The notes under the pieces were generated by a model, which was not told the DNA's origin, searched no databases, and saw nothing but the letters and a program-made list of their open reading frames with translations. Below are positions 6,147-57,455 of a stretch of DNA of 64,000 nucleotides, piece after piece. The position numbers and the translations under genes are program-made. Source of the stretch: Trypanosoma brucei. Taxonomy: Eukaryota. The stretch lies in assembly GCA_000002445.1 (NCBI GenBank), contig CP000071.1, forward strand, positions 736,001 through 800,000, given 5' to 3'. Each line of letters opens with the position of its first letter. The stretch's first letter is position 1.

Positions 6147-6920
6147 ATGTTACCTGGTAAACTCTTTAAAAGTACAGTTAAGGAAACTGATATGAGCATT
6201 TCATGTTCCCTGGCCGTTTTCCTGGTAGTCTACGCGTTGGGCTGCTGGGCTGACGGCACTCAGACGCGGGACAGGCCTTTCATGTATGCTGACAGCGTGC
6301 CTGCGCTTGCCCCGGGAGAAGTCCGAAGGAACGAAGCAATGCGCTTTCCATCGACGCTGGAAACGGAAGTGCGCCAGCGCTATGTGTTGACGAACATGCA
6401 AAGGGACGTGTACTATATTGCTCATCTTAGCTATCTCGGTTCCCCATCTATCATGTACAATCTCCATCTAACGCGTTTGCCACGTGCCACGGTCGGGGAA
6501 CTCCAACAGAAGAACCAAGCTGGCCCTGGTCAGCGGCATCTGTCCGATGTGAATCGAATGTACGTGAAGGCGCGCAAAGATGTCTTGCTCTTTGATTTCT
6601 TGGGAGGTGAAGGAGAGGTTGACAACGGTGATCACGACCCAGCAAATGATGATAGCTTTGTACCAGTTCTCGAGGTGCGCGGATATCGCAACGGCTTTCC
6701 GCACGAACCGGAGAAGTGGAAGGATTTCCGATACAACATCCGATTGGATGTCGTTGGAAGGGCCGATGGCCTCACAATGGCTATCATGTGGAATGTTGTC
6801 ACCGTGATTGTGATGGGAGTGTTTGTGATTGGCTTTGCCGCCCCGTGGGTCATCAGTACCGCTGCCGGGGATACAACCAATCAGCGGTCTCGGCGCGACT
6901 TCCTCATATTTTTTTGGTAG
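6147..6920 (+). CDS. Hypothetical membrane or secreted protein with a signal peptide and a C-terminal TM segment
   Basis: A hydrophobic N-terminus (MSISCSLAVFLVVYALGCWADG) follows the alternative start at 6192. A C-terminal TM segment (VTVIVMGVFVIGFAAPWVI) is followed by basic residues. No known domain was recognised. Confidence 0.45.
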   Translation: MLPGKLFKSTVKETDMSISCSLAVFLVVYALGCWADGTQTRDRPFMYADSVPALAPGEVRRNEAMRFPSTLETEVRQRYVLTNMQRDVYYIAHLSYLGSPSIMYNLHLTRLPRATVGELQQKNQAGPGQRHLSDVNRMYVKARKDVLLFDFLGGEGEVDNGDHDPANDDSFVPVLEVRGYRNGFPHEPEKWKDFRYNIRLDVVGRADGLTMAIMWNVVTVIVMGVFVIGFAAPWVISTAAGDTTNQRSRRDFLIFFW

Positions 6921-9416: not shown

Positions 9417-10701
9417 TGAGCACTCCATGGCGAGTGGAAAGTAATGGAAAGGCATGAGAACTCCCGAAGCCTAGGCCGAGTAGGCTGAAGGTACCTCATG
9501 CAAATTAATATAGGCGTGGGTACCAACGAAAGACGGAGAAAAGACGTCCAAGGAACAAAGGAAAACGGGGATGGGGATGGGGCCACGAACGGTAACACTG
9601 CGGCAGAATGGGTGCTCTTTTACATCGCTCGTTTGCTTCGTTTCCGACCTTGTTTTTGTTGGTGCTAGCTGTAGTTGTCTAATCAAAAAGTTAAAGAAAA
9701 AAAAGAAAGGAAACTAAGTGCGGAACTTCGCACCTGCGGTAGGGCAGATGTCGGTCGTTTTAGGCTCCGGTGCATCTCTCTTTCTTCCGTCTCCCGTCTG
9801 TTTGACCCCATACAGTCCGTTTCCGTGTGAAAGGTCCCTACACGAATACCGTGGCATTGAGGAAAGAAATAAATGTGGAAGGTATTGAAACAGGGAGGCA
9901 AACGCCTGACCAGCCATTATGTGACACGATCATTGTTTTGGTGGAGGGGGAGGCGAAGGGGTAGGCGAAATGAGAGAGGTGTCACTCGTTATTGTTTTGT
10001 TTTTGTTTTTGTTTTTGTGTTTTGTGTTTTGTCTCCTCTTCTATTGTAAAGCAACTAACGTTCATCTCGGTAAAAAAAAAAGCGGGAAGTGGAGGTCGCA
10101 AAAGAGGCGCGGAAAAGGAATTGGGGAAAAACAAGCAGGCGAAGAGAGGATGATGACTACCGCGGAGACAAACACGTATACGAACTCACACGGTCAACTT
10201 TTATGTATTTATACGTGCAGGGTAGCTGATGGCACGATTTATTGGTGGCGGGAGGTAAACGACGGGAAAGAAAAGAAAAAAAAGGTGGAGAGGGAGAGGG
10301 AGAAGGAAAACGATGTATTAGTGGGCCCAAGCAAAACGGAAGACGAACCGATACAAAGGAAAGGTGAGAAGGGGGAGGGACCGTACACGTAATTGGTCTT
10401 TATTTATAACTTTGTTATCTTGCTTTTCCCACTTCATACTTGTTTTCTGCCCCAAGTTCACACTATTCGTAAGCGGCTGTAAGAAAAGGGGGCGGAAAAG
10501 GCTTAAGGTTTTTTCTTAGTGGTTATCCAAAGACAGTCGTCCGAGGTCGTTCCACCTGCCTACACATGCGGTGGTGCGAGTGTAGATTTAGGTGTGTATC
10601 CTTCTATTACTTTGTCTGAATTTCATTTACATGTTGTTTCGTGTTTCCTAAAAGGGCTGTTCCCCTCTGTTTTCCAGTAAAAACGTATCCACAAACGAAC
10701 G

Positions 10702-10742
<41 letters not shown>
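10702..10742. repeat. Compound microsatellite (TA)n(TG)n
   Basis: The tandem run is gtatatatatatatatatatatatgtgtgtgtgtgtgtgt. Confidence 0.9.
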
Positions 10743-11711
10743 ATTTGCGAATGTATTTTGTCCGCCATTGAGAATGGAAAGGTATTAAGGATTTACGGCG
10801 TCTCGTCGTTCGGCGATATCATTTCATTATGTCCCTCACTCGCTTTGTCTTTCTTGTTCCTAAAGCGCGTAATTCTTCGTTTCTTTTTTTTCTTTTTTCT
10901 TTCCTACTCCTTTTGTTATTATTGTTGTTGTTGTTTTTTTTTTCATTGGTTTATTGGTTGGTTTGTTTCTTTCGCTCTTATTGTTCAACCGACACGTGCA
11001 CGTCGTGTGGGAATGGAGAGAAAAGCATACGTGCCTTGCCGCTTCGGGCGCAGAACCTCGTGACTCAACCGTATAATTTGTAGACTGAAGCAAACGAGAA
11101 GACCCCCAAAAGAAAAAAACGAAAGTGGAGAAGAGTTTATTTTGGGGTGTAGTTCCGGGGAGCGGCGGCTAAGACAATGATGCAGGGAAGCGAAAAGGAA
11201 GAAAAGATGTGTGCACGTTGTCATGCTTGCAATTTTTTTTGCCATTATCTCTCTTTTTTGTTTTTGTTTTTCGTTTCACGTGTCGGTTATGCTTAATTTT
11301 GAGGTTGAGCTAAGCCCTCGTGTGACAGAAGTACTTACACTAAATCCATTCAAAAGAAACAACAGGGAGGGAAGGGGGGGAACTGAATTCGCTTGTGCCC
11401 CTGCAGTTGTCATTGATTCTTTTTTCTTTTCCTCTGTTCATCCCCTTTTCTCCATGTGTGAAAAGCCATCCACTTCTTTAAGCAAAAACTATTGTTTTTG
11501 AAGAGCAAACACATGCAAGGAAGAAAGCGCTGGCCTCTTTTTGTGATGTTATGTGGTATACTGACTCGTTGAAGCGAACGCTAAAACCACTAATCGGACA
11601 GAAGAGGGGTCATGCAAACACGGCTATTTGCACTTACAATCATATACTCGTAGCCACGTGAAGGAGGATCGTTGCATTTACTTACAGAATACCCTTACAG
11701 AGCGATTGGTC

Positions 11712-11759
11712 ATATATATATATATATATATATATATTTATTTATTTATTTATTTATTT
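11712..11759. repeat. Compound microsatellite (TA)n(TTTA)n
   Basis: The sequence catatatatatatatatatatatatat is followed by ttatttatttatttatttattt. Confidence 0.9.
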
Positions 11760-11770
11760 GTACGAGTGAA

Positions 11771-11893
11771 ATGCCCCAGCAGGGTTTGCACACCGTCTCC
11801 CGCATGTACGCCAACTTCACGATGGTTGAAGAATCACCGCTGCATGCTCAGCTCAATATCATCCCCAGCTGTTGTGGGCTGAGGATGCGCTGA
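11771..11893 (+). CDS. Possible 40-aa small ORF (MPQQGLHTVSRMYANFTMVEESPLHAQLNIIPSCCGLRMR)
   Basis: It has GC-rich coding-like codon usage and sits immediately after a (TA)n microsatellite in an otherwise ORF-poor 3-kb interval. No homology was recognised, so it could be chance. Confidence 0.15.
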   Translation: MPQQGLHTVSRMYANFTMVEESPLHAQLNIIPSCCGLRMR

Positions 11894-12418
11894 AGGCTTT
11901 GATTTCATTACGTGAAAAACTCTCGCCACATTTGGTTCACCGCTCCCACATATGCAAAAGCTGGCCTTCGCCGGTCATCTTCGTTCCTCCCCTTTTGAAG
12001 GCAAGATGGCGCTTCCCTTTTGCGGGGGGCAAGTGAGACAAACCGAAAAAAAAAAGACAACATTTTTTTCTGGGCGTCCAGACCATGAAACCCGGAGAGT
12101 GGTCGAATTTCGTCTGTTTGTCCCTCTCTTTAGTATATTTTACGCAGGCTCGGGCTTTCCCTTCCGAAACGCTCATCCATCGCAACGCTAACATTCATGC
12201 AACTACAAATCTCATTGTGCCGTTACATCATCGCTTTAGCCCCCACTACTTACCTGCATTATATCTCTTATGTGCACATCCACATCTTCATCTTTCCTTC
12301 AATAGTTGTGCTCTTAGGGAGTGTAATTGACGCCTAGTGGATTTTGTTAGTTCCCTCCTCTACAAAATCGGGTGGTGCTCCTCTCACTTACTTAAACACG
12401 TAAACACATCAGTACGGG

Positions 12419-12763
12419 ATGGGCATAGAAACGTGGAAGGTTTTCCCGAGCATTCTCACGGAATACCCGAAGCATGGTGTTCCACTCCCTTGCTCGGATC
12501 AAAACCCACGCTTGAAATGCCCTGAGACGCGGTGGGCGAGAGATTTTTGCCTCGCACAGGGTGGTAACTGCGAGTATAAAATAGAGGCACATTTCGACTG
12601 TCTTGAGCAGTATTATCCACCAGAGAAGGTTATGCAGTTGCGCAAGGCATTTAAACCGAACACCTTGGACTACCCAACGAGCGACACGTACATTCGTTAT
12701 CGACATTTCTACATTGGTGCCGGTTGGATGGGGGGAAAGCGCGGGTGGGAAGGCACGGCGTAA
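12419..12763 (+). CDS. Twin Cx9C (CHCH-domain) small protein, a probable mitochondrial intermembrane-space or respiratory-complex accessory subunit
   Basis: Two exact Cx9C motifs, CPETRWARDFC and CEYKIEAHFDC, are separated by a short linker. The protein is 114 aa with an ATG start and a basic, Gly-rich tail. Confidence 0.55.
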   Translation: MGIETWKVFPSILTEYPKHGVPLPCSDQNPRLKCPETRWARDFCLAQGGNCEYKIEAHFDCLEQYYPPEKVMQLRKAFKPNTLDYPTSDTYIRYRHFYIGAGWMGGKRGWEGTA

Positions 12764-13260
12764 GGGTTGTGATGTTGTCATCTCCAAAGAGAAAAAAAAA
12801 AAGAAGGTTTCTTGTGCATTCTTGACCCTAGAAAGTACGGTTCTCTCCCAGGAGGTTGTTGTTCGTAGTTGAGGAAAAGCGTGGGTTGTGGTGCGTGTGG
12901 TAGCAAAACATGTAATCGTAGTAACACCTGATGGATGATAGCATGGCGGGAGGTTGTGAGAAGGGGAATAAATGTAAGGTCAGATTAGTAGGGAGAGACT
13001 TATATAAGAAGTTTTTTAGTGCTATGGCGGCTTTTTCTTCTCTCCCGCCGCAGGTCCATTCATACGTTTTTCATCGTTAAAATTTTTAGTTTAGCGTATG
13101 GTTGTTTGCCCGACGCTGAAGTGTAGCTGCACCGGTACGCCGCACACTTGCAGAGAAATTCGTGCGAGGAGGTCGCATTATGACGCGACCAAATGCAACG
13201 GTTGGAAGGACTGTTGCGTCTGGAGGAGGTGGAGTCCAAGAGAAGACACACTTAACCTGC

Positions 13261-13340
13261 CCCATCATCCTTTTTTTTTGTGTGTGTTGACCCCAACTGC
13301 TTCATCGTCCACCATCTCCCTTTCCCGCTTCCTTTCACGA
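13261..13340 (+). promoter_or_regulatory. Polypyrimidine tract upstream of the thiolase-like gene, a probable trans-splice signal
   Basis: The tract ccttttttttttgtgtgtgttgaccccaactgcttcatcgtccaccatctccctttcccgcttcctttcac is followed by AG dinucleotides and the ATG at 13535. Confidence 0.35.
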
Positions 13341-13534
13341 ATAGTTTGTGGACCGTGGTGCATATTACGGTTCTAGGGAAAGTGAGTAGTTACCGTCTAC
13401 GCTAGCTTTTTTACGCGGAAAGAAGCATACATTTGAAGCAAAAGTAGGTTTATTTAGAAGGGTAAAGGAACGAAAAGGCTCAAGTTTAAGAAAGGAACTA
13501 CTACAACAATTACAACAGGTTAATCAAAAGGATA

Positions 13535-14851
13535 ATGCTCCGTCGTACGTCCTCCACATTTTCAGCAAAGCGAGTATTTGTTGTGGGTGGGCATATTACA
13601 ACGTTTGTGGGCAAAGGGTCACCACTTTTTATCGATAAAAAACACCCCGATTTTGGCAAGAAGGAAAACAAAACACTGGAGGAACTTCTGGCAGAGAGCA
13701 TAAATGGAGCACTGCAAAACACGGGTCTGCACGACGGCCGTGCGGCGCTCGTTGACAAACTTGTCGTCGGAAACTTCCTTGGCGAGTTGTTCTCTTCTCA
13801 AGGGCACCTTGGTCCGGCAGCGGTTGGCAGTCTCTCCGGCAGCAACAGTTCTGCCTTCCTAAACAAACCAGCTGTGCGCGTCGAGGGTGCGTGTGCAAGT
13901 GGTGGCCTCGCTGTGCAGTCCGCATGGGAGGCACTACTCGCCGGTACTTCACAAATCGCCCTTGCTGTGGGTGTTGAGGTTCAGACAACCGTCTCTGCAC
14001 GTGTGGGTGGTGATTATCTCGCACGTGCAGCACACTACAAGCGCCAGCGACAGCTTGATGACTTCACGTTCCCCTGCCTCTTCGCAAGACGTATGAAGGC
14101 AATCCAGGAGGCGGGTCATTTTACGATGGAAGACGCAGCGTATGTGGCAGCGAAGGCTTACGCGAGTGGTAATCGGAACCCTCTGGCCCACATGCACGCG
14201 CGGAAGGTAACGTTAGACTTCTGCACACAAGCCTCCGACAAGAACCCTAACTTCCTTGGGAACGAAATATACAAGCCTTTCCTGCGGACCACGGACTGTT
14301 CACAGGTCAGTGATGGCGGAGCTGCGGTTATCCTCGCCAGTGAAGAAGGGTTGCAGAAGTTAGGCCTTTCACCCAACGACAACCGCCTCGTTGAAATCAA
14401 ATCTCTCGCCAGCGCAGCCGGTAACCTCTATGAGGACTCACCAGATCTTACACGAATGACTACTTCCATGGTTGCGGCGCGAACTGCCCTTTCGATGGCT
14501 GGCGTGAAGCCCGAGCAACTTCAGGTTGCAGAGGTGCATGACTGCTTTACCATCGCTGAGCTGCTAATGTATGAGGCCCTCGGTATTGCAGAGTACGGGG
14601 GTGCGGGGGCCCTCATCCGCAGTGGGGCAACGGCACTTGATGGTCGCATTCCAGTCAACACCGGGGGCGGTTTGTTGTCGTTCGGCCATCCGGTAGGAGC
14701 CACTGGCGTGAAGCAGGTGCTGGAGGTGTACCGGCAGATGAAGGGCCAATGTGGGGAATACCAAATGAAGAACATCCCCGGGATTGGCGCCACGCTTAAC
14801 ATGGGTGGTGATGACAAGACTGCAGTGTCTATGGTGCTAACGAATATCTAA
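13535..14851 (+). CDS. Thiolase-like protein (SCP2-type 3-ketoacyl-CoA thiolase / acetyl-CoA C-acyltransferase family)
   Basis: It has the N-terminal catalytic Cys motif VEGACASGG and the C-terminal thiolase motifs NTGGGLLSFGHPVGATG. The protein is 438 aa. Confidence 0.85.
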   Translation: MLRRTSSTFSAKRVFVVGGHITTFVGKGSPLFIDKKHPDFGKKENKTLEELLAESINGALQNTGLHDGRAALVDKLVVGNFLGELFSSQGHLGPAAVGSLSGSNSSAFLNKPAVRVEGACASGGLAVQSAWEALLAGTSQIALAVGVEVQTTVSARVGGDYLARAAHYKRQRQLDDFTFPCLFARRMKAIQEAGHFTMEDAAYVAAKAYASGNRNPLAHMHARKVTLDFCTQASDKNPNFLGNEIYKPFLRTTDCSQVSDGGAAVILASEEGLQKLGLSPNDNRLVEIKSLASAAGNLYEDSPDLTRMTTSMVAARTALSMAGVKPEQLQVAEVHDCFTIAELLMYEALGIAEYGGAGALIRSGATALDGRIPVNTGGGLLSFGHPVGATGVKQVLEVYRQMKGQCGEYQMKNIPGIGATLNMGGDDKTAVSMVLTNI

Positions 14852-15685
14852 ACAGGCAGCGACGAAGAAGAACTGTTGCGAAAGGAAAGTAAATCCGCAC
14901 CCAACCACTCCCCTCCTCCCGCCCCCGGGGGGAAGCAAGGAAACATGTGATTGAAGACCACCACACCTCTACCGCGGCAACCGGGGGTGCCACGGTGGAC
15001 TGCAGGGGTGTGGTGCTCATAATGGATTCGTCTGTTTACTTTTACTGAATTTTCTGTTTTTTCTTTATTTCTTATTTTTCACACCTGGTTACTTTGCCAG
15101 TGGTGCCCGCTGAAATCTTTCTTGTGCTTGATGGGACCAAGTGACTGTCTAACACTGAATCGTACACCACAGGAGGGGGATGGAACTGAGGTAACGCAGT
15201 GGCACGCTCACGAAGCGTGTTAGGATACGGTATTACGAAGAAAACGGGTGGACGGAAAGAGAGGTGACCAACACCCCAACAGGATGATGTTCTTTATTGT
15301 GTCCACTTACTAGAGGGCTCTGTGATGCCAGCGCATTAGTTGTGCGGGGTTTTGACTATTCAATTGCTCATTTCCTTATCTTTCCTCTTCCACCTAATTG
15401 ACCTTTGGTTCCACTACTGCACTTCTACCTTTTCCGTTCACCATCAGGCCTACGGAACCTCTTTCAACCACCCTCACAATCTCTGCAATAATACCACGCG
15501 GGGGCGCACCTCGCATCGATACGCACCAATGACGCCTGTCGTGGGGCACGTGTACGTTAAACGGCGCTGCATCACACGCACCTCTCTCCCTCCTCGTTTA
15601 TTTACTTGGTAATAAATACCGACGTGCCTCTTATCTGAAGAAAATAATATACAAGAGACAAGGCGGGACACGCAACACTACAAGG

Positions 15686-17575
15686 ATGCTCCGCATCACC
15701 TTACCATCACAGCAAGTTTCCAAGCGGCTAGTTGCAAAGTTGGCCTCCATGTCTGGTGTAAAGGGTGCAACGGCAACTAATGCTAAGGGAAATGACGCTG
15801 CTTCACAGGCAATGGAAGCACCAGCAGTCGTACCACCTTCCAGAGAAACCCCCAAAAGTACCCTGCCGAGGGTAGGAGCAAGAGCAGCCGTTCCGGTGGG
15901 TGGCGCAGGCGTGCACTCGGATGCATTGAGGCAAGGTACGCTAAGAGCGGCAACGCCAATAAAGCCCTCAGTTGCCGCTGCGGCGGCGTCAGTGTACGAA
16001 ACACGTATCAACGCCCCAGCACCCAATATCCGCAATGGCGAAGCTGATGGACAGCAACTACCGCAAAAAAAGACACTGAGGAGACGGAAAAGGTTGATCA
16101 GGGTGTCAACCAGGCGTCGCGTACGTCAAAATACCGCCAAAGTCCCAGAAGATATGGAAGAGGAACCTATTGTGGAAGATGTGGAAGACCCATTCGTCGA
16201 TCAGGAGGAACACGAGGAGGAGCCCGTGGCCGCTGCGCCTCGAGAAAAGCGCCAGCAGCCTCGACCTGAGCGGGTAAAAGGACGGCCGGAAGCGAAAACA
16301 GTAGACAGACAACCGGAGATTAAAAAAACGGAACCTTCACCAGCCGCCTCATACGCTGCATACGAGCATGACAGAATTTCTGGTACGTCTCTTCACGGGA
16401 AAACACCGATGATTAAGGCCTTCCGTATCGAAGACGTACTCGCGGCGTGCACGCCTAGTGACGGTGTATTCGCCCGCCGGCTTCCGCAAGGGGGTTGTCA
16501 GTTCTTCGCATGGCCGGGCACCCCACTTGCCGTCGCTAGTAGCGCCGTGGCAAACATGCCGGAGACCATCCGGACCGTCCACGCCATATTTGGGCGAGAA
16601 AAAACGCCGATGGACTTGGTGCTGGATATCGACTGCCCCGTTCCACAGGAGCACTGGAGCATGTCAAAAGTTCGGCCGTTTCAGAAAAAGGTGTTGGACG
16701 ACGTGATGAATGTGATTGTGGAGGAAATTGAAGCAATTGGTGAGGAGATTGAGTCCCAGGTTGTGCTTCAGTCACCAAATCTCAAGAAGGTTTCCTTCCA
16801 CGTGCATACCAAGCTTAAGGATGCCGCCTTTGAAGATTACAATTCCCTACACGGATTCCTGCACCAGTTCCACAAGAGAATACCGGCCGTGGACCTGCAA
16901 ATCTACCGCTCCAACGGTATGCTCCGTATGCACCGTTGTATGAAGGAGAATCACACCAGCGCTATTGTGGTTTTTGAAGACAAGGACTGGAATATCGGTT
17001 TCCCAGACGGTATTGTACCGGACGCGAAAGCTGCCCTTCACTCCGCCTGCATCCGTGAAGAGGGAACGTACTCCCGTCTGCTGCACTTTGACCCGCCGCG
17101 CAACTTCCCAACGGCGTTTGAGAACTCCGGGGCCAACGGCAGCGGTGCCGCAGAGGATAAAAAAATCAAAGTCCTCCTTCCGCGCACGGAGCGTGAGGCA
17201 GTTGAAAACGCATCGCGATGGCTCCGTGAGGGAACCCGCGAGGCAGACGTTGACGAATGGCGCTCATGGATCCGGCTTGGTATCAATGCATACCGCGTGG
17301 CGTATCACTTCCGGGACGCAATGACGTTACAGCGGCCAGCACTGGAAGAGCTCCTTGACGCATGGGTGGAGGCGAGCAAGAAATGCCCAGCGAAGTTCAA
17401 ACCTGGTGTGTGCGAGGCCCGATGGGCAACATTTGATATTAACAGACTCTCGAAGTTTGACGATAATGAGTGGTGGCCATCATACCAACGCATTGGAAGG
17501 ACGGCGATGTTGAATGAAGCGGCAGACGCGGCAAACCGCGGTGGTGCCAACGGCATCCCTCCACAAGGAGCGTAA
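15686..17575 (+). CDS. PRI1: Archaeo-eukaryotic primase (AEP) superfamily protein of NCLDV/herpes-pox type, consistent with the kinetoplastid mitochondrial DNA primase PRI1
   Basis: AEP motif I hhDhD is present as MDLVLDIDC. Motif II sxH is present as KVSFHVHTK. Motif III is present as VDLQIYRSNGMLRMHRCMK. A C-terminal helical PriCT-like region (WRSWIRLGINAYRVAYHFRD...) follows. The protein is ~70 kDa and lies immediately downstream of the thiolase, as I recall for T. brucei chr8. Confidence 0.65.
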   Translation: MLRITLPSQQVSKRLVAKLASMSGVKGATATNAKGNDAASQAMEAPAVVPPSRETPKSTLPRVGARAAVPVGGAGVHSDALRQGTLRAATPIKPSVAAAAASVYETRINAPAPNIRNGEADGQQLPQKKTLRRRKRLIRVSTRRRVRQNTAKVPEDMEEEPIVEDVEDPFVDQEEHEEEPVAAAPREKRQQPRPERVKGRPEAKTVDRQPEIKKTEPSPAASYAAYEHDRISGTSLHGKTPMIKAFRIEDVLAACTPSDGVFARRLPQGGCQFFAWPGTPLAVASSAVANMPETIRTVHAIFGREKTPMDLVLDIDCPVPQEHWSMSKVRPFQKKVLDDVMNVIVEEIEAIGEEIESQVVLQSPNLKKVSFHVHTKLKDAAFEDYNSLHGFLHQFHKRIPAVDLQIYRSNGMLRMHRCMKENHTSAIVVFEDKDWNIGFPDGIVPDAKAALHSACIREEGTYSRLLHFDPPRNFPTAFENSGANGSGAAEDKKIKVLLPRTEREAVENASRWLREGTREADVDEWRSWIRLGINAYRVAYHFRDAMTLQRPALEELLDAWVEASKKCPAKFKPGVCEARWATFDINRLSKFDDNEWWPSYQRIGRTAMLNEAADAANRGGANGIPPQGA

Positions 17576-18558
17576 TCGTAGCGACATAAGTTTGTGGCAG
17601 CACAGGGAAGGAGGGGGACATGAATGGATGGAGAAAAGAAAAATTGAAAAAAAAAGAAAAAGAAAAAGAAAGGAAACAAAGGTGAGCCGTCATTTTTTCT
17701 TTTTCTCCACCCTGTGCTCACACTCGTTTTTATACACTCCGTGCGTTTTTATCATAGAGGTTTTACTCTCTTTTTTTTAAAAAAAAAAAGAGGGGGAGAA
17801 GAAAAGATTGTCGTCTTTGGATGGCCATCATGATAATTCGGGACGGGGCAGAGGGGGGAGAAGCCGGTGTCGCTGCCAACCACTGTTACCATAACCTCAA
17901 TCTCAACAGCATAGGACTGATGAAAGAGGGAAGAAAAATACCCAGCAAAGGGGGAAATATGCAAAGGGATGAAAAAAAGGATAAATAAACTTTTTCTTTG
18001 GGGATGAGGAATGCAGTGGTGCGTTACATAGCGACAGCATCTCTCTCTTTTTTTTTTTTGTAAATGTTTGTTGGTTCGATCATAGAAGAGATTCGAAGAA
18101 GGAAAAAAAAACTGTTTTCTTTTGAATATGGGAGTCTCAGATGTCTTGTGCACGCCTCAAGGGACATGAAGAATGCACTTGAAGCATGCGTAAATATTCA
18201 CTCCCTCTTTTCCTGTATGCATTTGCGATGTTACGTCATACATGTGTTTCTCCAAAAGAGAAAGAAAAGTTTTAAAAAGAAAAAAAAAGAAAAGAAAAGA
18301 AAATGTCTCTTTCCTTGTTTTTGAGGAAGCCATAGATTTTTTTTAAAAAAAAGAAAAAGGAATGAATAGAAGAGGATGAAGGGAGACAAGGTGATGAGTG
18401 TGGTGTGGTTGGCTGACTCCCTACGCTTTGTTTTGTTTTTGTTTTTGTGTGTTAGAGAGAGGAAAGAGGGGGTGATAAAAAAAAAATAGATAAATAAAAA
18501 GAAAAGAAGTAACACATGTTTATAACAGCAGTTGAGCAAGAAAGGGAGAAAAAAAAAA

Positions 18559-18577
18559 GAGAGAGAGAGAGAGAGAG
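18559..18577. repeat. (GA)n microsatellite
   Basis: The run is gagagagagagagagagag. Confidence 0.85.
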
Positions 18578-19347
18578 CATCGGGGAAAAGGCAGCTATCG
18601 GATGCCTTTCGTTTGGTTTTCACAAGTCTGTGTTTTTCTGCTCTCCACACGTGTTCCCTGAAAAATAACCCCTTTGGGATCTCCTCTTTCCTTCACAGTG
18701 AACACGCATATACAGACACAAACATACAAGCGTACATTAACACAATAGAGCCTCATGCACATCCTGCTTTGTTATCTGTCATTTATTTTGAGGCGGCGGG
18801 CGTTTGCCCTTGTTTTCATCCACTGACTTTCCTTTCATTGTTGCTTTTTGTGTTTCTCCTTTTTTTTTTTATTGGTGTTTTTTTTTTTCCTTGTTCGTGG
18901 TTGTTTTATACAATTTGTATCCCCTTCTTTCCTTTTGTTTTTCGTTTCTGTTTTGCCCGCTTAATACCTCCACCGTCTCTTCCTTCGCCATTTTGTCGTG
19001 GGTTGAGGCTCCTTGCGACAGAACCTTCGTGTCAACGCCATTCCTGCAACTTCCACCTTTCCATAATTCTACCAAACTTTCGTCATTTTGTTACTATTAT
19101 CATTATTATTGTTATTATTAATGTTGCCGCTTCCTCTCATTACCTTTAAGTGTAGGATTGAAAATGGCGGAAAAAAGCAGATGAAAGGAGGAACTCGTGT
19201 GCGGGACGTGCCCTTGACGCTACAGGAACTCCCTACGAAATTCAAGGGTTCATGTTTCAGAGACTATATTTATTTATTTTTTAACGCTTCGTGGCGCAAA
19301 GCACATGCATTTCCGTCGCTTCTCTCTGGTTAGAGCGGATGTGTTGT

Positions 19348-19470
19348 TTCGTTATTATTATTATTTTTTCCTTTTTCTTTTTCTTTTTTGCTTTATTTGT
19401 GTGTGTTTACTTTCCTGTTCTCTCAGTAACTTCCCCCTTCATCCTTTCTGTCTCTCTTTTAACATGCTGT
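19348..19470 (+). promoter_or_regulatory. Long polypyrimidine tract upstream of the Dim1 homologue
   Basis: The tract is ttattattattttttcctttttctttttcttttttgctttatttgtgtgtgtttactttcctgttctctcag ... Confidence 0.35.
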
Positions 19471-19589
19471 GCCGTTGTGTCCCTTAGCCTGTGAGCGCAC
19501 GTGCGCAAAGGGCTAACTGAAATTGTGGATACATCAGGCTTGGTATAGGGAAGTTTCCATTGCTTTTTTTTAAAAAAAAAAACTTTTTT

Positions 19590-20057
19590 ATGACGGAGTT
19601 GACACGCCTACACTCCGCCTGGGATGTTGACCGGCATATTGTGCTTGAAGGCGAGAAACTTGTACTTATCCGCTTCAGTCATTACGGTGAAGCGACGGAG
19701 CAGGAAGAAGACATGGCACACACACTTTCCACACGCCAAATAGATGAAGTACTTGTCGCACTCGCACCAAAGGTACGGAAGTATTGCACAATTTATGTTG
19801 TGTCTACGCTGGAGGTGCCTGAGTTCAACGTCATGTATGAATTGGGTCACAGCAGAGAGCCCTTCGCCGTGATGTTCTTTTACCGAAACGCACATATCCG
19901 TGTGGATGTGGGGACGGGGAACAATAATAAAATCAATTTTGTTGTATCGGAAGATGAACTGTTATCCATCGCTGACGCAGCGTACCGTGCGGGGAGAAGT
20001 GGAAAGACGATAGCATACTCGGAAAAGAAATTCACAACAGCTGCTGTACGCCGTTAG
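19590..20057 (+). CDS. DIM1: Dim1/TXNL4-family thioredoxin-like protein, a component of the U4/U6.U5 tri-snRNP
   Basis: It aligns along its whole length to Dim1. The pattern is L..W.VD..I..E...V.IRF.H, then IY.V...EVP.FN.MYEL, then MFF.RN.HI.VD.GTGNNNKIN. The track start at 19560 is a TTG; the ATG is at 19590. Confidence 0.8.
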   Translation: MTELTRLHSAWDVDRHIVLEGEKLVLIRFSHYGEATEQEEDMAHTLSTRQIDEVLVALAPKVRKYCTIYVVSTLEVPEFNVMYELGHSREPFAVMFFYRNAHIRVDVGTGNNNKINFVVSEDELLSIADAAYRAGRSGKTIAYSEKKFTTAAVRR

Positions 20058-20525
20058 TGCTGTCTTTAGTGTCGCCCATGTGTCATTAAGTTGCGCAAGT
20101 GGGAACTACAGTTGGGGAGAGAATATTTTTCTTTCGTTTCCCTCATCACATATTTTCTTCTTCACCCACAACACCCACATACGTTCACGCACGTTATGAC
20201 TTTAAAAAAAAAAACTAAGTATATGTAAACCGTTGTTATTTTCTGCTGAAGAATTGTATGACACACGCCTTTCCCTACTTCTGTTGCCTCTCTCAGATTT
20301 TTTCACTTGCCCCAGGTAAACAGGTGGAGGGGAAGAGCATTACGTATTTCCTCCCAAAGGTGTGGGGGTTAAGTTCAACATAACGTGGTACCGTTACACG
20401 TGAAAGAACGGAAACAAATAAGGAGAAAAAGGAAAAGAAAAAAAAAGTTGTGCTCCTCAACGGTCTATCGAAAGGGCAACAACAACAACTGTAACAGCAA
20501 ACGCGGGAGTAAAAGGACACAGAAA

Positions 20526-21827
20526 ATGGCAAGGTTTCAATCTTCTGTGGTTTCCCGTGCGCCGGCATTTACATTTGTTATGTTTTCACTGGTAGCGGCG
20601 GGAGTTCCAAGAGTTATTCCTGGAGCTGATGGCTCCGTAGCCACTGAAACGAAGGGAAAGGGTGGGGCTGTCCGTGAAAACAGGGAGGGCAAATGTGCTT
20701 CCAGGATTGTGTCATATTTAAGGCGTGCCGTTACGCAGCGGGCGGAACTTACACAGCGAGAGTTACGGGCCCGTGCAAACCTCAACGAAGCGCGCAGTGT
20801 AGCCTTAGAGGAGGAAGACGGCCAGCGGGAGCCAAAGAATGACACACATCAACGTATCATGGAGGCCTGGGGTGTTGTAGGAGCTGTTAATGACGATATT
20901 ATCCGTTTCAACGAGAGGACGATTAAACAACATGGAGACGTGCCGTGTGTGTGCATTAACGAAGTGTTCGGCGGGCCGGACATCAGGGCTGCGGGCGCCG
21001 CCACCTCATGGAAGGAAATAGTGTTGCTGCAGATGGATCTTCTTTTCATGTATTGGAAACTATATTGGGAAACGCTGCACGGCGTGTGGCTGTTTACATT
21101 TGAGGAATATGCGCCGTACGAGAAGCTCTACGGCGACACGGTGGGGCACTATCAGCGGAAAGTGCAGGAACTGAGGACAGAATTGGAACGCACCAGCACC
21201 CTTAGCGCTGACAAGGATGTCAACCCGCTGGTGGGCTTTGCGCACTTGGCTCTCACACACACGAAGATCTGGACCTACAGTGCAGTACCCTGGGTAACTC
21301 AAATTACTGTGGTTCTTTTTGTGCTCTTGTTTCTGCCTTTTATTATGAGTGCCACCGTACTTTCCAACTTTGTGTGGCGGTTGTGGCTACAGCTGTTCGT
21401 CGCACATCATGTATACGGATTAACAGCGGATGGGATCCTCGACTCGCTCCGGGAGTACATCAGTCTTGTCACAAGTCAAAAGTGGAAGGAACTGCAGGGG
21501 CGCTTAATAACTGGACTCTCGGCACTCGCATTCGGTGGTAGTTGTGGTACCTTTTTCAGCCTCCTCCCTGCCATGATATTCATTTTTGCTACCGTTGTGT
21601 TCATGGTTACGCTCATGTGCGTGTGGACCAGGCTGCCGCTTATGTTGCTTTTATTTTGTGAAGAAGCAGAGGCAGAACGCTCGGTTAAGCTTGCTCCAGC
21701 TGATGTGAAAAACAAGCAGTCGGACGTAAAAAGTAAAAATGGTGGGGGCTCGGAAAAGACCACCGCTACTAAAGGTAAAAGGAACTTAAAAAAGGGCCCC
21801 AATGACACCGAAAAGTGCAAATCGTAG
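20526..21827 (+). CDS. Hypothetical multi-pass membrane protein
   Basis: A signal or anchor-like segment follows the N-terminus (MARFQSSVVSRAPAFTFVMFSLVAAGV), and several C-terminal TM helices are present. The track start at 20385 is a GTG; the first ATG is at 20526. Confidence 0.5.
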   Translation: MARFQSSVVSRAPAFTFVMFSLVAAGVPRVIPGADGSVATETKGKGGAVRENREGKCASRIVSYLRRAVTQRAELTQRELRARANLNEARSVALEEEDGQREPKNDTHQRIMEAWGVVGAVNDDIIRFNERTIKQHGDVPCVCINEVFGGPDIRAAGAATSWKEIVLLQMDLLFMYWKLYWETLHGVWLFTFEEYAPYEKLYGDTVGHYQRKVQELRTELERTSTLSADKDVNPLVGFAHLALTHTKIWTYSAVPWVTQITVVLFVLLFLPFIMSATVLSNFVWRLWLQLFVAHHVYGLTADGILDSLREYISLVTSQKWKELQGRLITGLSALAFGGSCGTFFSLLPAMIFIFATVVFMVTLMCVWTRLPLMLLLFCEEAEAERSVKLAPADVKNKQSDVKSKNGGGSEKTTATKGKRNLKKGPNDTEKCKS

Positions 21828-26448: not shown

Positions 26449-28086
26449 ATGGCGGTGTCGGGATCGGAGTCAGGGACGTCCGAAGGAAAGTTGAGTATTA
26501 GTTCAGGGACATCAAGCCACAATTCGTTTTCTTCCTCCTCTTCACCCTCCACAGAGGGAGGAATACAAGCGGATGAGCCAGCAGCGGAGACTGGCACGAG
26601 CAGTAAGAGCTCAGCTGCAGGTGTCAGCCCGGCGGCCGATTGCACAAATGGGCTGGAAGCAGAATATGCTTTACGGCGTATAAGCGTCGGGTCACACAAG
26701 AAAATAGATGCAGGCGAAGCGGAGATGCACGGCAAAGGCGAGAACCAAGTTGGAGGAAGTAATCAGCTTTTGAAAGATTCACCATGTGTGCATGTCAGTA
26801 GGAGGGCAGAAGAACCAAAAGTGCAGGGGGGACAACCGCGTGGACGGAGAGAAAAGCAACAGGGCCCCACCAATGAAAACACGAACTCTGGCCCCGGGTC
26901 AGCCGACGCTGCATCGCGGCTACGGTTCCTTGAAGAAATGTTGCTTCACATGACCGCTCTAAACAAGGAGCTAGAAATGGATCTCACGAAAACGAAGAAG
27001 GAGCTTCGGGAATACAAACAAGCCTTTCAACGGTCGCACTCTCGTACAGCTTACGAAACACCTACTCAGTCAGTGAATGCACGAAACGTTGACTCGGAGT
27101 GGGGGGAGATACGCAGCAGGGATGCATTGTATCCGGTGGCACGCACGAGGGAGGCGCAGCGACGGCAATGTCATGTGGATCCGCATTCGGACATTAGGGG
27201 CAGTCGGGCCGCATCGTCAAGACCATCTGCCCACCGCCGGGCGGGGGCTGACGGGCGCTTAGAGAAAAGGATTTCATCTAGTGCATTTGGTACGTGCCCA
27301 CCGAAGGGAGTAGGATCAACTCGGGTTACCAAAGAAGCAGTTTCTGGTCGGGAACTGAGTCGTGGTAGGAGTGGGGCTGTAAATGGCTTGCTTCGTCACC
27401 CCTCCGCACAACGGAGGTACTCCACGGCTCCGACAGTTGAGGCCCGACCATCAGGAGTGATGTCACGCGGGGAACATTCGCGGCAGTGCGGCCAAGTTCG
27501 CGACTACTCTCAAGATTGCAGAGATGCCCATGGTAGGAAGTCCGAGCCGCGCCGCGAGAACTCTGGGCCCTGCGCGGGTCGCCGAAAAAGCAGGTCACCA
27601 CAACCAATCCAAAGGGATCCTTCGAATCACAGAAAAGCTCCGCGGAGGAGCCCAGGATCCGCTCCACAACCACCATCAGGCACTCAGACAGTAAAACTGC
27701 GGGGAGCGAGGCCCACAGGGTCAGTGGCAGGACCCTGCAGTAGAAGCAGGTCGGCACCGAAGCAGAGCACCGAAGTTGTTAGCATACCGGCGCCTTTGCC
27801 AAGGAATCATAGAAACGCATCAGCGACGGCTACAGTTGCACCAGGTCGAGGTCGGTCGTCCAGGAACTTTTCCCATGCAGTAGCAACGGCAGGTAAACCG
27901 ACCAGCAAGCACGCGGCCAGTGGTAGAGCCGTTCCCCGTTCTGTGGAAAGCACTCTAACTCAGACTCAGACCGTAACTCCTGCCCCAGAAGGTAATATAG
28001 AGGATGTAGCGGCGCTTCAGCGGCGGTATTGGCAGCAATCACGAGACATCTTAGAGCAGCTTAACCGGTTGCTGGAAGAAGATTAA
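26449..28086 (+). CDS. Hypothetical basic Ser/Arg/Pro-rich low-complexity protein with an N-terminal coiled-coil
   Basis: It has an ATG start. A coiled-coil segment (LRFLEEMLLHMTALNKELEMDLTKTKKELREYKQAFQR) is followed by a long S/R/P/G-rich disordered region. The protein is 545 aa. Confidence 0.5.
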   Translation: MAVSGSESGTSEGKLSISSGTSSHNSFSSSSSPSTEGGIQADEPAAETGTSSKSSAAGVSPAADCTNGLEAEYALRRISVGSHKKIDAGEAEMHGKGENQVGGSNQLLKDSPCVHVSRRAEEPKVQGGQPRGRREKQQGPTNENTNSGPGSADAASRLRFLEEMLLHMTALNKELEMDLTKTKKELREYKQAFQRSHSRTAYETPTQSVNARNVDSEWGEIRSRDALYPVARTREAQRRQCHVDPHSDIRGSRAASSRPSAHRRAGADGRLEKRISSSAFGTCPPKGVGSTRVTKEAVSGRELSRGRSGAVNGLLRHPSAQRRYSTAPTVEARPSGVMSRGEHSRQCGQVRDYSQDCRDAHGRKSEPRRENSGPCAGRRKSRSPQPIQRDPSNHRKAPRRSPGSAPQPPSGTQTVKLRGARPTGSVAGPCSRSRSAPKQSTEVVSIPAPLPRNHRNASATATVAPGRGRSSRNFSHAVATAGKPTSKHAASGRAVPRSVESTLTQTQTVTPAPEGNIEDVAALQRRYWQQSRDILEQLNRLLEED

Positions 28087-54824: not shown

Positions 54825-55766
54825 AGGGAGAAAAAAAAAACACAACATTGGGGAAGGAGGTGAACGTTGCAAAGGCTATACGATGCCATCACGTTCCGAA
54901 ACAAAAGGCCGAAGCAGTGCATGAAAAGAGAATAAAAAAAAAACGAAAACCGGCACCATCACCGGCGCACCCTCGGCTCGGCCTAGTAAGATAGAGCAAG
55001 AGGCGTGCAAGTGTTTTAAGAAAAAAAAGATCGGTGGCATAACTCCATTATCCCCTTTTAGGAAGCCCGCATCTGCAGGGCAACAGCGGACAGAACTGCT
55101 CATACGTAGTGTAGTGTATATGACAATCGCTTACATGAGACTGCACCGAACACACGAAGTAGACGTGTTAAACGGTGAAGGAGTTGTTGGGCAATTAGTG
55201 TAACTAACAAAACCAATAAAAGCGGTTGCTTGGGACGCCTATTCGATTCAATATGGTTTAACCAAGGGATGCGCTGTAGGGACCTGGGCACATTAAAACG
55301 TTACTTAGCCCGCGAGCATCACCTGGGTTTCGCAGCCGCATTAGTTTGCAGTAGGTGTATTTATATAAGTTATGAGGAGAGAGATTTTCAACCCATCACT
55401 AGATCTTGTTTTCACGCAATGCACTTAATGTGCCCTATAATATACTGTACGGATAGTTGATGAAATGGAAACTTGCGTCTCTTTAACGGGGTGCCGCTTC
55501 TTGCGCACTGCTAGTTATTCGGGAATAATGTACCTTTTATAAAACGCAAATGGCCTTTTTTGTTTTATTTTGTCTTGTTGTGCCCGTGTATTCCTTGCCT
55601 CTAAAGCGCCTCTACTTGACGCGGAATATGTGGCATAGAGCTGATTTTCGCTTCATCTCCGAAGCCACTCCTTCATTATGCACGAGTTGCTTAACCACAA
55701 CAGCTCGACCTGTTATTATTGCACCCTCGATGCTTTGTGTATTCTTTTTTTTTTTCTACTGCCGCC

Positions 55767-55788
55767 TGTGTGTGTGTGTGTGTGTGTG
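55767..55788. repeat. (TG)n microsatellite
   Basis: The run is tgtgtgtgtgtgtgtgtgtgtg. Confidence 0.85.
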
Positions 55789-57455
55789 CGTTTGCGCAGG
55801 TGCCCCTGCTGGAAACTGGTGCTTGTTTGTAACCGTGCTTTGCTTACACCTTCCCCTGATACAAAAGGAAGGAAGTTCGTTCTCCTCTTCAACCAACCGC
55901 TGTCACGTGCCAACCTTAATTTACACCCACCAACAAGCGGCCCTTTCATGTGGACTACGGCGGCTGCTTGGGCTCTGGCGGCAAATATGTAAGGGGCTAT
56001 GTGTTGTGAAGGGATTGAAGATACGAACCCAAGGAGGCTGCCAAAAAGCGGGGAAACGTTGGCAAAAAATAATATATATATACATATATAGCGGCATATG
56101 AGGCGGCACAAGCGTAGATACGGCGTCCGATTGATTTTGTTCATTTTGTGGCGAGCCCACTTGTACGCAGTTGGGTTACGTTTCTTTTTTTTTTTTTGGA
56201 ATGGAACACCGCAGAAATAGGAGAGACCTTGGGGACGCAAGTGGAGGATGTGTAGGATTAATGTCACGCCGTAACCACGACGTTCAAAGAAGGTATTGGA
56301 GGGAAAACCGCAAGCGTTACACGGTGATACAACCTCTGCTTTCCGATAGGAAAGGATCCCAACCATTGGACCTCAGAGGGGATGCATGACCAAAATTATT
56401 GTTAACCGAGCAATGCTTTGATGGGGATGATGAATTCTGTCGCTTCCCCTTCCTTATGCTTGCGTGTGTGAGTGGTGGAAAGGCTGCTTATCCATTGGGC
56501 CGCGCTCCCTCTACGCCTCCCATCCCAGAGACCGTAAGAAGGGATGTTGCTAGTTTTTTCTCATTTCCCACCGCCGACTCCACCGGAATGTGCTAGCCTA
56601 TACCCCCTCCTCAGCCCGTTTGGGGCGTCGCAACCGACCTCTCGACGCGTCGACGGCTGCCACCTCTACCTTAACTTGCCGTCGTTTTCTTAACGCAGTT
56701 GTGCTTTTCTGTCACGCTCGTCTTTCCCGGTGACAATACTTGTTTCCTTTCCCTGCTGGCTGTGTTGAAACGGATCCACCCAGCCCGTTGAGACCCCTCC
56801 CCCTTTGCTTGAATCCCCCCACCCCATGTGTGCCCGACATTTGAAGTGGTTTATAGCGCTCGGCTGATTCGCCATGCCCGGCCGGTAAATGGTGCCCACC
56901 CGTCGGTGTGTGAGAATGGTCGTTTTAGCCCTTACTCTGCAGTTAGCTCCCTTCCGTTGCCTCGCCTACCACAACCTTCACATGCAACGGATCCCTTTCA
57001 CTGTGCTAAAGCGCTGCGGCCTCCACAACCCATACCAGTCCGATGTGTCTTCGGGCGCCTGGTTACATCATCCCTGTTAGCGATCCCCATCCCTCACCCT
57101 CTTTCCTCAACACCCTGTTCGGACGCGCCGTCCACGGTCTCTCCAGTACGTCGGCACACTTCAACGAGTCGTGGAACCGTTTCTTTACCTCGGTTGCCTG
57201 AAGCTTCTCGAGTGGTTACTTTTATGTCTTCTTCAAGGAAAGTAGCGATATTCGGTTCAAAGTTGGAAACATTTCCCCTGTCCTGTAGCCGAAGGTGACG
57301 TCGCAACGCTGTCCAGTGGTGTCCGACATCCAATTGCTGGCTGCTGTTACGATTTGGCCTTTCGTGATCCACTCAGCAGGTAATCTCCGGCTGTGAACCC
57401 GCCCCGCAGCGGCTTAACCGTGAACTTGTACGTCAAAAGCAACGGTCGCTGCGTG

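Follow-up and report, generated by a model that had tools for sequence, protein, structure and literature searches.

Mitochondrial DNA primase 1 (PRI1) of Trypanosoma brucei has been known as a gene and as a function since 2010 and was restudied repeatedly thereafter. In that year, Hines and Ray reportedly found that recombinant PRI1 synthesises oligoriboadenylate on poly(dT), a product which can be extended by a DNA polymerase. PRI1 corresponds to the gene Tb927.8.2550 and the second enzyme, PRI2, to Tb927.1.4010; PRI1 is located at the antipodal sites, and its depletion by RNA interference (RNAi) resulted in growth arrest and in shrinkage and loss of the kinetoplast DNA (kDNA) (PMC10719067, PMC13623095). 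The PRI1 transcript is among the top two of those with a late-G1 peak, protein levels are highest in S phase, and a mNeonGreen fusion (mNG::PRI1) flanks the kDNA (PMC10212563). The archaeo-eukaryotic primases (AEPs) share, according to Guilliam et al., the motifs hhhDhD/E (I), sxH (II) and hD/E (III), of which I and III bind metal and II the nucleotide (PMC4538821). In human PrimPol, D114, E116 and D280 are the metal ligands, while H169 and R291 hold the incoming nucleotide (PMC8961649). Here we analysed a 64,000-nucleotide stretch of T. brucei DNA (contig CP000071.1, positions 736,001 to 800,000 of the forward strand; hereafter the window, with positions counted from its first letter) and in it one open reading frame (ORF) that a preliminary description, made from the letters alone, had taken for a virus-like primase gene and probably PRI1.

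Identity of the reading frame

The frame under study is the following.

15686..17575, plus strand: PRI1 coding sequence (Tb927.8.2550), based on the ORF, on gene-specific primers and a single guide RNA (sgRNA) abutting the ATG, and on 100% protein identity

We regard it as nearly certain that this ORF is the nuclear gene of T. brucei PRI1, a virus-type primase that acts by the mechanism proposed below, and nothing contradicts the identity. As the gene and its function were described before, the result is a correct annotation and no discovery. In the ORF list of the window the frame runs from ATG to stop with 629 amino acids (aa) plus the stop codon; the predicted mass of the product, 69.9 kDa, agrees with the earlier estimate of about 70 kDa, and the predicted pI is 8.9. 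It is a genuine gene and no chance frame: 38 homologues across the Kinetoplastea were found at E <= 1e-85, and the Pfam families PPL5 and PriCT_2 exceeded their gathering cut-offs.

The decisive identity link, which is independent of annotation, was provided by published reagents. CRISPR reagents for the N-terminal tagging of Tb927.8.2550 appeared in eLife in 2023 (PMC10212563). The 30-nt forward homology arm equals window positions 15633-15662, the sgRNA target equals 15663-15682 and is followed by AGG as protospacer adjacent motif, and the first ten codons of the ORF (15686-15715), read as reverse complement, equal the reverse arm. All three matched with 0 mismatches and occurred a single time in the window. 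A search of ~5.8 billion proteins revealed a 100% identical 629-aa entry (P0001), named "mitochondrial DNA primase [Trypanosoma brucei equiperdum]", and 37 more homologues; the named ones were all kinetoplastid, the Leptomonas homologues were explicitly labelled PRI1, and one Bodo saltans protein was among the matches. Two NCBI assemblies contain a gene for the exact PRI1 protein as well, on FN554971.1, a chromosome-scale record of 2.2 Mb, and on CZPT02001770.1, both of which keep the gene order thiolase-PRI1-DIM1. Exact primers, the identical named protein and synteny thus bear out the proposal of PRI1.

Domain architecture, catalytic residues and viral affinity

A structure model was calculated with AlphaFold2 on an alignment of 38 orthologues. 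Residues 1-240 were disordered, with a predicted local distance difference test (pLDDT) score mostly below 50. They were followed by an alpha/beta domain with the RRM-like AEP fold (aa 241-473, pLDDT > 90), a short flexible linker (aa 474-490) and an all-helical part (aa 491-620, pLDDT > 90) with helices across aa 502-619. The features of the folded part are listed here, with the evidence for each.

16406..17104, plus strand: AEP catalytic domain, aa 241-473 (model, PPL5, Foldseek, profile hidden Markov model, HMM)
16616..16633, plus strand: AEP motif I hhhDhD, L311-V-L-D314-I-D316, predicted metal ligands (alignment to PrimPol D114/E116)
16793..16801, plus strand: AEP motif II sxH, S370-F371-H372, predicted nucleotide binding (alignment to PrimPol H169)
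16889..16945, plus strand: AEP motif III and nucleotide-binding arm, V402-D403-LQIYRSNGMLR414-MHRCMK420 (alignment to PrimPol D280/R291)
17156..17545, plus strand: PriCT-2 helical C-terminal domain, aa 491-620 (Pfam, model, profile match to C962R of African swine fever virus (ASFV), invariant W528/K570)

The Pfam family PPL5 (Prim-Pol family 5, PF18168) matched aa 279-376 with 30.7 bits against a cut-off of 26.2, and the match spanned only positions 91-181 of the 356 in the profile. A PRI2-type protein of T. congolense (P0075, 1031 aa), one of the distant relatives treated below, reached 358 bits with the same family, most of whose profile it covers, and carries a C-terminal PriCT_2 as well. 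Because of this partial match and the difference in score, PRI1 is a peripheral member of PPL5. The family PriCT_2 (PF08707) matched aa 521-584 with 28.3 bits against a cut-off of 22, and a broadened PRI1 profile matched the PriCT-2 region of ASFV C962R (residues 301-386) at E 3.3e-5. The preliminary description had been right in seeing a helical PriCT domain at the C-terminus; its type is PriCT-2 and not PriCT_1. Of the families it had recommended for a check, D5_N, Herpes_UL52 and PriCT_1 gave no Pfam match in PRI1 even at E <= 10. Pfam yielded no zinc-finger family in PRI1 either, and a search of NCBIfam gave no match, which is no surprise since its models are prokaryotic. The family DNA_primase_S stayed below its cut-off of 26.8, with 19 bits and E 0.0019 for aa 313-414. 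The statement that the protein has no resemblance to the canonical primase PriS was slightly overstated in view of this match and of the same family (PF01896) in several orthologues. The annotation of the orthologues is inconsistent: some carry PPL5, some DNA_primase_S and some PriCT_2 alone.

Two of the catalytic motifs were present as previously read, LVLDIDC at aa 311-317 (nt 16616-16636) and SFHVH at aa 370-374 (nt 16793-16807). The string given as third motif, LQIYRSNGMLRMHRCMK, is found at aa 404-420 (nt 16895-16945), but it contains no acidic residue: it starts at L404 and omits the catalytic D403. In the alignment of 38 orthologues D314, D316, S370, F371, H372, H374, D403, R408, G411-M415 and K420 were invariant. 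A broader alignment included relatives down to ~20% identity, obtained by searching 1.84 billion representative proteins exhaustively with a profile. Only H299, D314, S370, H372, D403, R408, R414, W528 and K570 remained invariant in it, and D316 nearly so.

The profile built on the broad alignment matched human PrimPol in the PDB at E 4.6e-9 and the AEP domain of vaccinia D5 and mpox E5 at E 8e-7; its PDB matches were confined to PrimPol, D5/E5 and C962R. In the profile-HMM alignments D314 and D316 of PRI1 correspond to D114 and E116 of PrimPol, H372 to H169, R414 to R291, and D403 to both D280 of PrimPol and D170 of vaccinia D5. The preliminary description had staked its reading on such a correspondence, and its DxD and H motifs do align with catalytic residues of PrimPol and vaccinia D5. 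The residue correspondence is based on the profile-HMM alignments and on the overall match of the folds. A search of the PDB sequences with the single PRI1 sequence returned nothing meaningful, only low-complexity matches to subtilisin and proteins like it. In the full-length orthologue profile the low-complexity N-terminus again brought contamination, and significant PDB matches came only from the core-only and the broadened profiles.

The fold comparison pointed in the same direction as the profiles. Foldseek against the PDB placed human PrimPol first (E 6e-11 to 9e-10, template modelling (TM) score 0.66-0.73 on the target), followed by UL52 of herpes simplex virus 1 (HSV-1), the ASFV PrimPol C962R and the AEP domains of poxvirus D5/E5, at a probability of 1.00. 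The best 50 PDB matches all belonged to PrimPol, HSV UL52, ASFV C962R or poxvirus D5/E5, and none of these 50 was a PriS structure. In BFVD, a collection of predicted viral structures, the best matches were primase-helicases and primases of giant viruses (E 1e-13 to 1e-7), from Terrestrivirus, Heterosigma akashiwo virus (D5), Indivirus, Marseillevirus, Catovirus, pithoviruses and Bodo saltans virus. Many of these alignments extended over 410-470 columns, which is long enough for AEP plus PriCT-2. Taken together, the fold and profile matches support the placement of PRI1 in the AEP clade of nucleocytoplasmic large DNA viruses (NCLDVs) and herpesviruses, an assignment that had been stated before (PMC4538821). 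In this comparison PRI1 matches the primase half of proteins of the D5/C962R type and lacks their helicase. Pfam, the alignment of catalytic residues and the fold matches agree on the kinetoplastid NCLDV/herpes-type AEP primase that had been proposed.

The PRI1 family is small and comprised 119 clusters at E <= 0.001 in the exhaustive search. Its distant tier consisted of two types, PRI2-type proteins such as the T. congolense protein mentioned above, and metagenomic proteins of ~900-1400 aa that combine AEP_C962R, PriCT_2 and D5_N/helicase. Orthologues of PRI1 were also present in the free-living bodonid Bodo saltans and in Cryptobia/Trypanoplasma. They occur throughout the Kinetoplastea including the bodonids, and therefore any transfer between virus and host predates the kinetoplastid radiation.

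The N-terminal part of the protein differs in character from the folded core and contains the following features.

15686..16405, plus strand: disordered, poorly conserved N-terminal extension, aa 1-240 (pLDDT mostly < 50, unalignable between genera)
15686..15793, plus strand: presumed mitochondrial import signal, 36 N-terminal residues, MLRITLPSQQVSKRLVAKLAS... (composition)
16061..16129, plus strand: conserved basic/hydrophobic patch, aa 126-148, PQKKTLRRRKRLIRVSTRRRVRQ (orthologue alignment, columns 183-200)

The orthologue alignment revealed that Bodo-type bodonid orthologues of 379-431 aa lack the extension. Since it is also unalignable between genera, aa 1-240 are, on this alignment, to be regarded as a trypanosomatid-specific extension. 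The first 36 residues contain 6 K/R and no D/E; the first acidic residue is aa 37. The protein starts with MLR, an M-x-R start is common to the PRI1 orthologues including those of bodonids, and the neighbouring thiolase begins with MLRR. From this composition we infer a presumed import signal; the N-terminus resembles a kinetoplastid mitochondrial presequence. The patch at aa 126-148 (QKKTLRRRKRLIRVSTRRRVRQ) has its counterpart in the RKKKIIRRIVKRKK of Leishmania, Leptomonas and Phytomonas and is the sole conserved island in the extension. Thirteen K/R fall within aa 126-160, and an acidic run follows the basic patch. DNA binding or targeting to the antipodal sites are possibilities for its role.

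Proposed mechanism and competing readings

Our own results concern the gene identity, the domain architecture, how far the catalytic residues are conserved and can be aligned, and the viral-clade affinity; primase activity, localisation, RNAi phenotype and cell-cycle regulation are taken from the literature. Combining both, PRI1 would belong to a same-strand polycistronic unit of chromosome 8 and be transcribed with it, and the ~70 kDa protein would be imported into the single mitochondrion and concentrate at the antipodal sites that flank the disc of kDNA. There the AEP domain is predicted to bind two divalent metals via D314, D316 and D403 and the incoming nucleotide via H372 and R414, and to make short primers de novo on the single-stranded kDNA template. 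The PriCT-2 domain, whose position corresponds to that of the zinc finger in PrimPol and UL52, would stand in its place; from this correspondence it presumably helps to hold the template or the initiating nucleotide. The primers would then be elongated by the mitochondrial DNA polymerases. Loss of PRI1 leads to shrinkage and disappearance of the kDNA network and to growth arrest.

Three points qualify this account. At the DNA level the window and the two assemblies with the identical PRI1 protein agree to only ~99%: window positions 12686-20575 differ from the corresponding loci (L001 and L002) by 35-43 mismatches plus 9-13 gap openings within 7.9 kb. This difference of ~1%, in intergenic DNA, is strain variation, and the window therefore stems from a close strain of the T. 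brucei group. Moreover, PRI1 tagged N-terminally with mNeonGreen was still located properly beside the kDNA (PMC10212563). A tolerated N-terminal tag sits uneasily with a classical cleavable presequence and suggests an internal or tag-tolerant import signal. Finally, the class of kDNA that is primed by PRI1 is disputed. The work of 2010 inferred maxicircles (PMC10719067), whereas a 2026 study in PLoS Biology argues for a primary minicircle defect, with mtRNAP-mtTF1 priming the maxicircles (PMC13623095).

The last point leads to the competing reading that survives best, in which the main task of PRI1 at the antipodal sites is the priming of Okazaki fragments or of minicircle replication, and not of maxicircles as first proposed. 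It is consistent with the presence of Pri1 at the antipodal sites throughout the cell cycle, with the fragmentation of the kDNA upon Pri1 RNAi, by which minicircles fell below 60% and maxicircles below 50%, and with the requirement of a disc-located mtRNAP-mtTF1 complex for maxicircle maintenance (PMC13623095). In the earlier RNAi work, however, maxicircles were lost faster than minicircles and minicircle replication intermediates were not lost (summarised in PMC10719067), and the sequence of PRI1 does not distinguish between the two templates. We consider the minicircle reading a serious contender that falls slightly short of even weight.

A second proposal extends the activity of the enzyme. 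PRI1 might be more than a replicative RNA primase, namely a primase-polymerase that reprimes or bypasses lesions on kDNA at the antipodal sites, with the disordered N-terminus and its basic patch as a module for DNA tethering or site targeting. Such a PrimPol-like additional activity is conceivable because the core is closest to human PrimPol and all catalytic and nucleotide-holding residues of PrimPol are kept. If true, repriming or lesion bypass would help to reconcile the conflicting maxicircle and minicircle phenotypes. As a whole we regard this proposal as unlikely.

The viral affinity raises the question of a recent insertion, i.e., an endogenous fragment of a giant virus instead of a resident cellular gene. 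Outside the kinetoplastids the closest relatives are indeed NCLDV primase-helicases and herpes/pox primases. Against this stand the orthologues throughout the Kinetoplastea with all catalytic residues conserved, the absence of the D5_N/helicase module of the viral proteins from PRI1, and the surroundings: the GC content of the PRI1 region (0.52-0.53) does not differ from that of the coding regions beside it, the gene is a same-strand member of a polycistron of unrelated housekeeping genes, and family scans of the window ORFs revealed no further viral-type genes near PRI1. A recent insertion is thus very improbable and was ruled out by phylogenetic breadth, composition and context.

Confusion with another T. 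brucei enzyme deserves even less credence. PRI2 or a PRI2-like paralogue would offer the same pair of an AEP of the PPL5 type and a C-terminal PriCT-2, the window protein does match PPL5, and PRI2-type proteins are distant matches of the PRI1 profile. Yet PRI2 has 129 kDa and is encoded on chromosome 1 (PMC10719067), the PPL5 scores of the two types lie far apart (358 against 30.7 bits), and the exact matches of the Tb927.8.2550 primers and the neighbour Tb927.8.2540 speak against it; size, chromosome, PPL5 score, primers and synteny rule PRI2 out. Equally negligible is the nuclear PrimPol-like translesion enzyme PPL1 or PPL2, both of which T. brucei possesses (PMC4538821): human PrimPol is the best solved-structure match, but the gene-specific primers identify Tb927.8.2550, i.e., PRI1, a PriCT-2 is present instead of the UL52-type zinc finger of PrimPol, and the tagged protein lies beside the kDNA (PMC10212563), so that identity, domain content and localisation rule it out.

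With the identity as PRI1 retained, the gene is a classic example of how a virus-type replication enzyme was recruited to an organelle. PRI1 is essential and has no counterpart in the mitochondrial replisome of the host. In Leishmania it has been proposed as a drug target (PMC10853515). The present analysis adds the map of the catalytic site onto PrimPol, a confident two-domain model, a PPL5 fit that favours PRI2-type proteins, and the conserved basic patch.

Chromosomal setting and comparison with described primases

PRI1 lies directly downstream of the SCP2-thiolase gene, whose identifier is Tb927.8.2540 (PMC5993337), so the position after a thiolase had been read correctly. The two flanking genes serve as context only.

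13535..14851, plus strand: upstream neighbour, SCP2-thiolase Tb927.8.2540 (PDB 4bi9, full length, E 4.5e-291)
19590..20057, plus strand: downstream neighbour, DIM1 homologue (Pfam DIM1, E 4.6e-34; same gene order in L001 and L002)

Every window ORF of at least 180 aa with family support was located on the plus strand, and their functions were unrelated; besides PRI1 they include a steroid 5-alpha-reductase-like protein, a SET-domain protein, an FtsJ methyltransferase, acetyl-CoA synthetase, the thiolase, DIM1, Sec10, BING4, methionine synthase, a kinesin, ubiquitin E1, a metallo-beta-lactamase-fold protein and a Kelch protein. The surroundings are an ordinary trypanosomatid polycistronic unit, the housekeeping array that had been described. 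Four further plus-strand ORFs, at 6147-6920, 20385-21827, 26449-28086 and 55550-56101 (257, 480, 545 and 183 aa), had no Pfam family at E <= 0.001-0.01 and presumably encode kinetoplastid-specific hypothetical proteins. The antisense or out-of-frame ORFs within PRI1 (15631-16035, 16349-16654 and 17305-17721 on the minus strand, 16965-17324 on the plus strand) were of low complexity and unsupported, and were rejected as chance frames.

The gap between PRI1 and DIM1 (17576-19589) is unusually long, ~2 kb, and contains many poly-purine and poly-pyrimidine tracts. In one of the assemblies the gene caller placed a 156-aa ORF in this gap (L001 5971-6441); it was not called in the other and had no family match. 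One copy of the cell-cycle element CATAGAA occurs in the 3' region of PRI1 at 18081-18087, which by itself is evidence of nothing; the element was not enriched in the window, with 6 copies versus 6.06 expected. The ~4 kb between acetyl-CoA synthetase and the thiolase (9417-13534) contain simple repeats and no ORF of at least 180 aa; the short ORFs there (92-140 aa) were without Pfam support. A 114-aa product that matches COX17 weakly runs beyond the upstream edge of the retrieved loci.

Compared with the published T. brucei PRI1 (Tb927.8.2550), no difference was found at the protein level; the start codon, the flank, the size of ~70 kDa and the neighbour Tb927.8.2540 are the same. PRI2 (Tb927.1.4010) resembles PRI1 in its PPL5-type AEP and C-terminal PriCT-2, acts in the same organelle at the antipodal sites and is essential for kDNA, but it has a mass of 129 kDa with a long N-terminal extension and appeared only as a distant paralogue (E ~1e-16) in the PRI1 profile search. 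The canonical PriS shares the AEP superfamily and the three motifs, to which the weak match of PRI1 to DNA_primase_S below the cut-off corresponds; unlike the canonical system, PRI1 has no PriL partner domain. Human PrimPol (PDB 5L2X, 7JK1), of the same clade, is the best solved match to the catalytic domain of PRI1 (E 6e-11, TM score 0.67-0.73), although the identity is only 17-19%. PrimPol is, like PRI1, active in mitochondria as well. It is a DNA-primer-making enzyme of repriming and translesion synthesis, whereas PRI1 is described as a replicative primase, and its C-terminus carries a UL52-type zinc finger and an RPA-binding region in contrast to the PriCT-2 of PRI1. This zinc finger defines the PrimPol and UL52 families and not the whole clade; the D5/C962R types carry PriCT-2, like PRI1. 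The primase-helicases of the NCLDVs (vaccinia D5, mpox E5, ASFV C962R and those of mimivirus and marseillevirus) have the same order of AEP followed by PriCT-2. The viral proteins run on into D5_N and a superfamily 3 (SF3) or origin-binding helicase, whereas PRI1 ends after PriCT-2 and, in contrast to them, begins with a disordered N-terminal extension.

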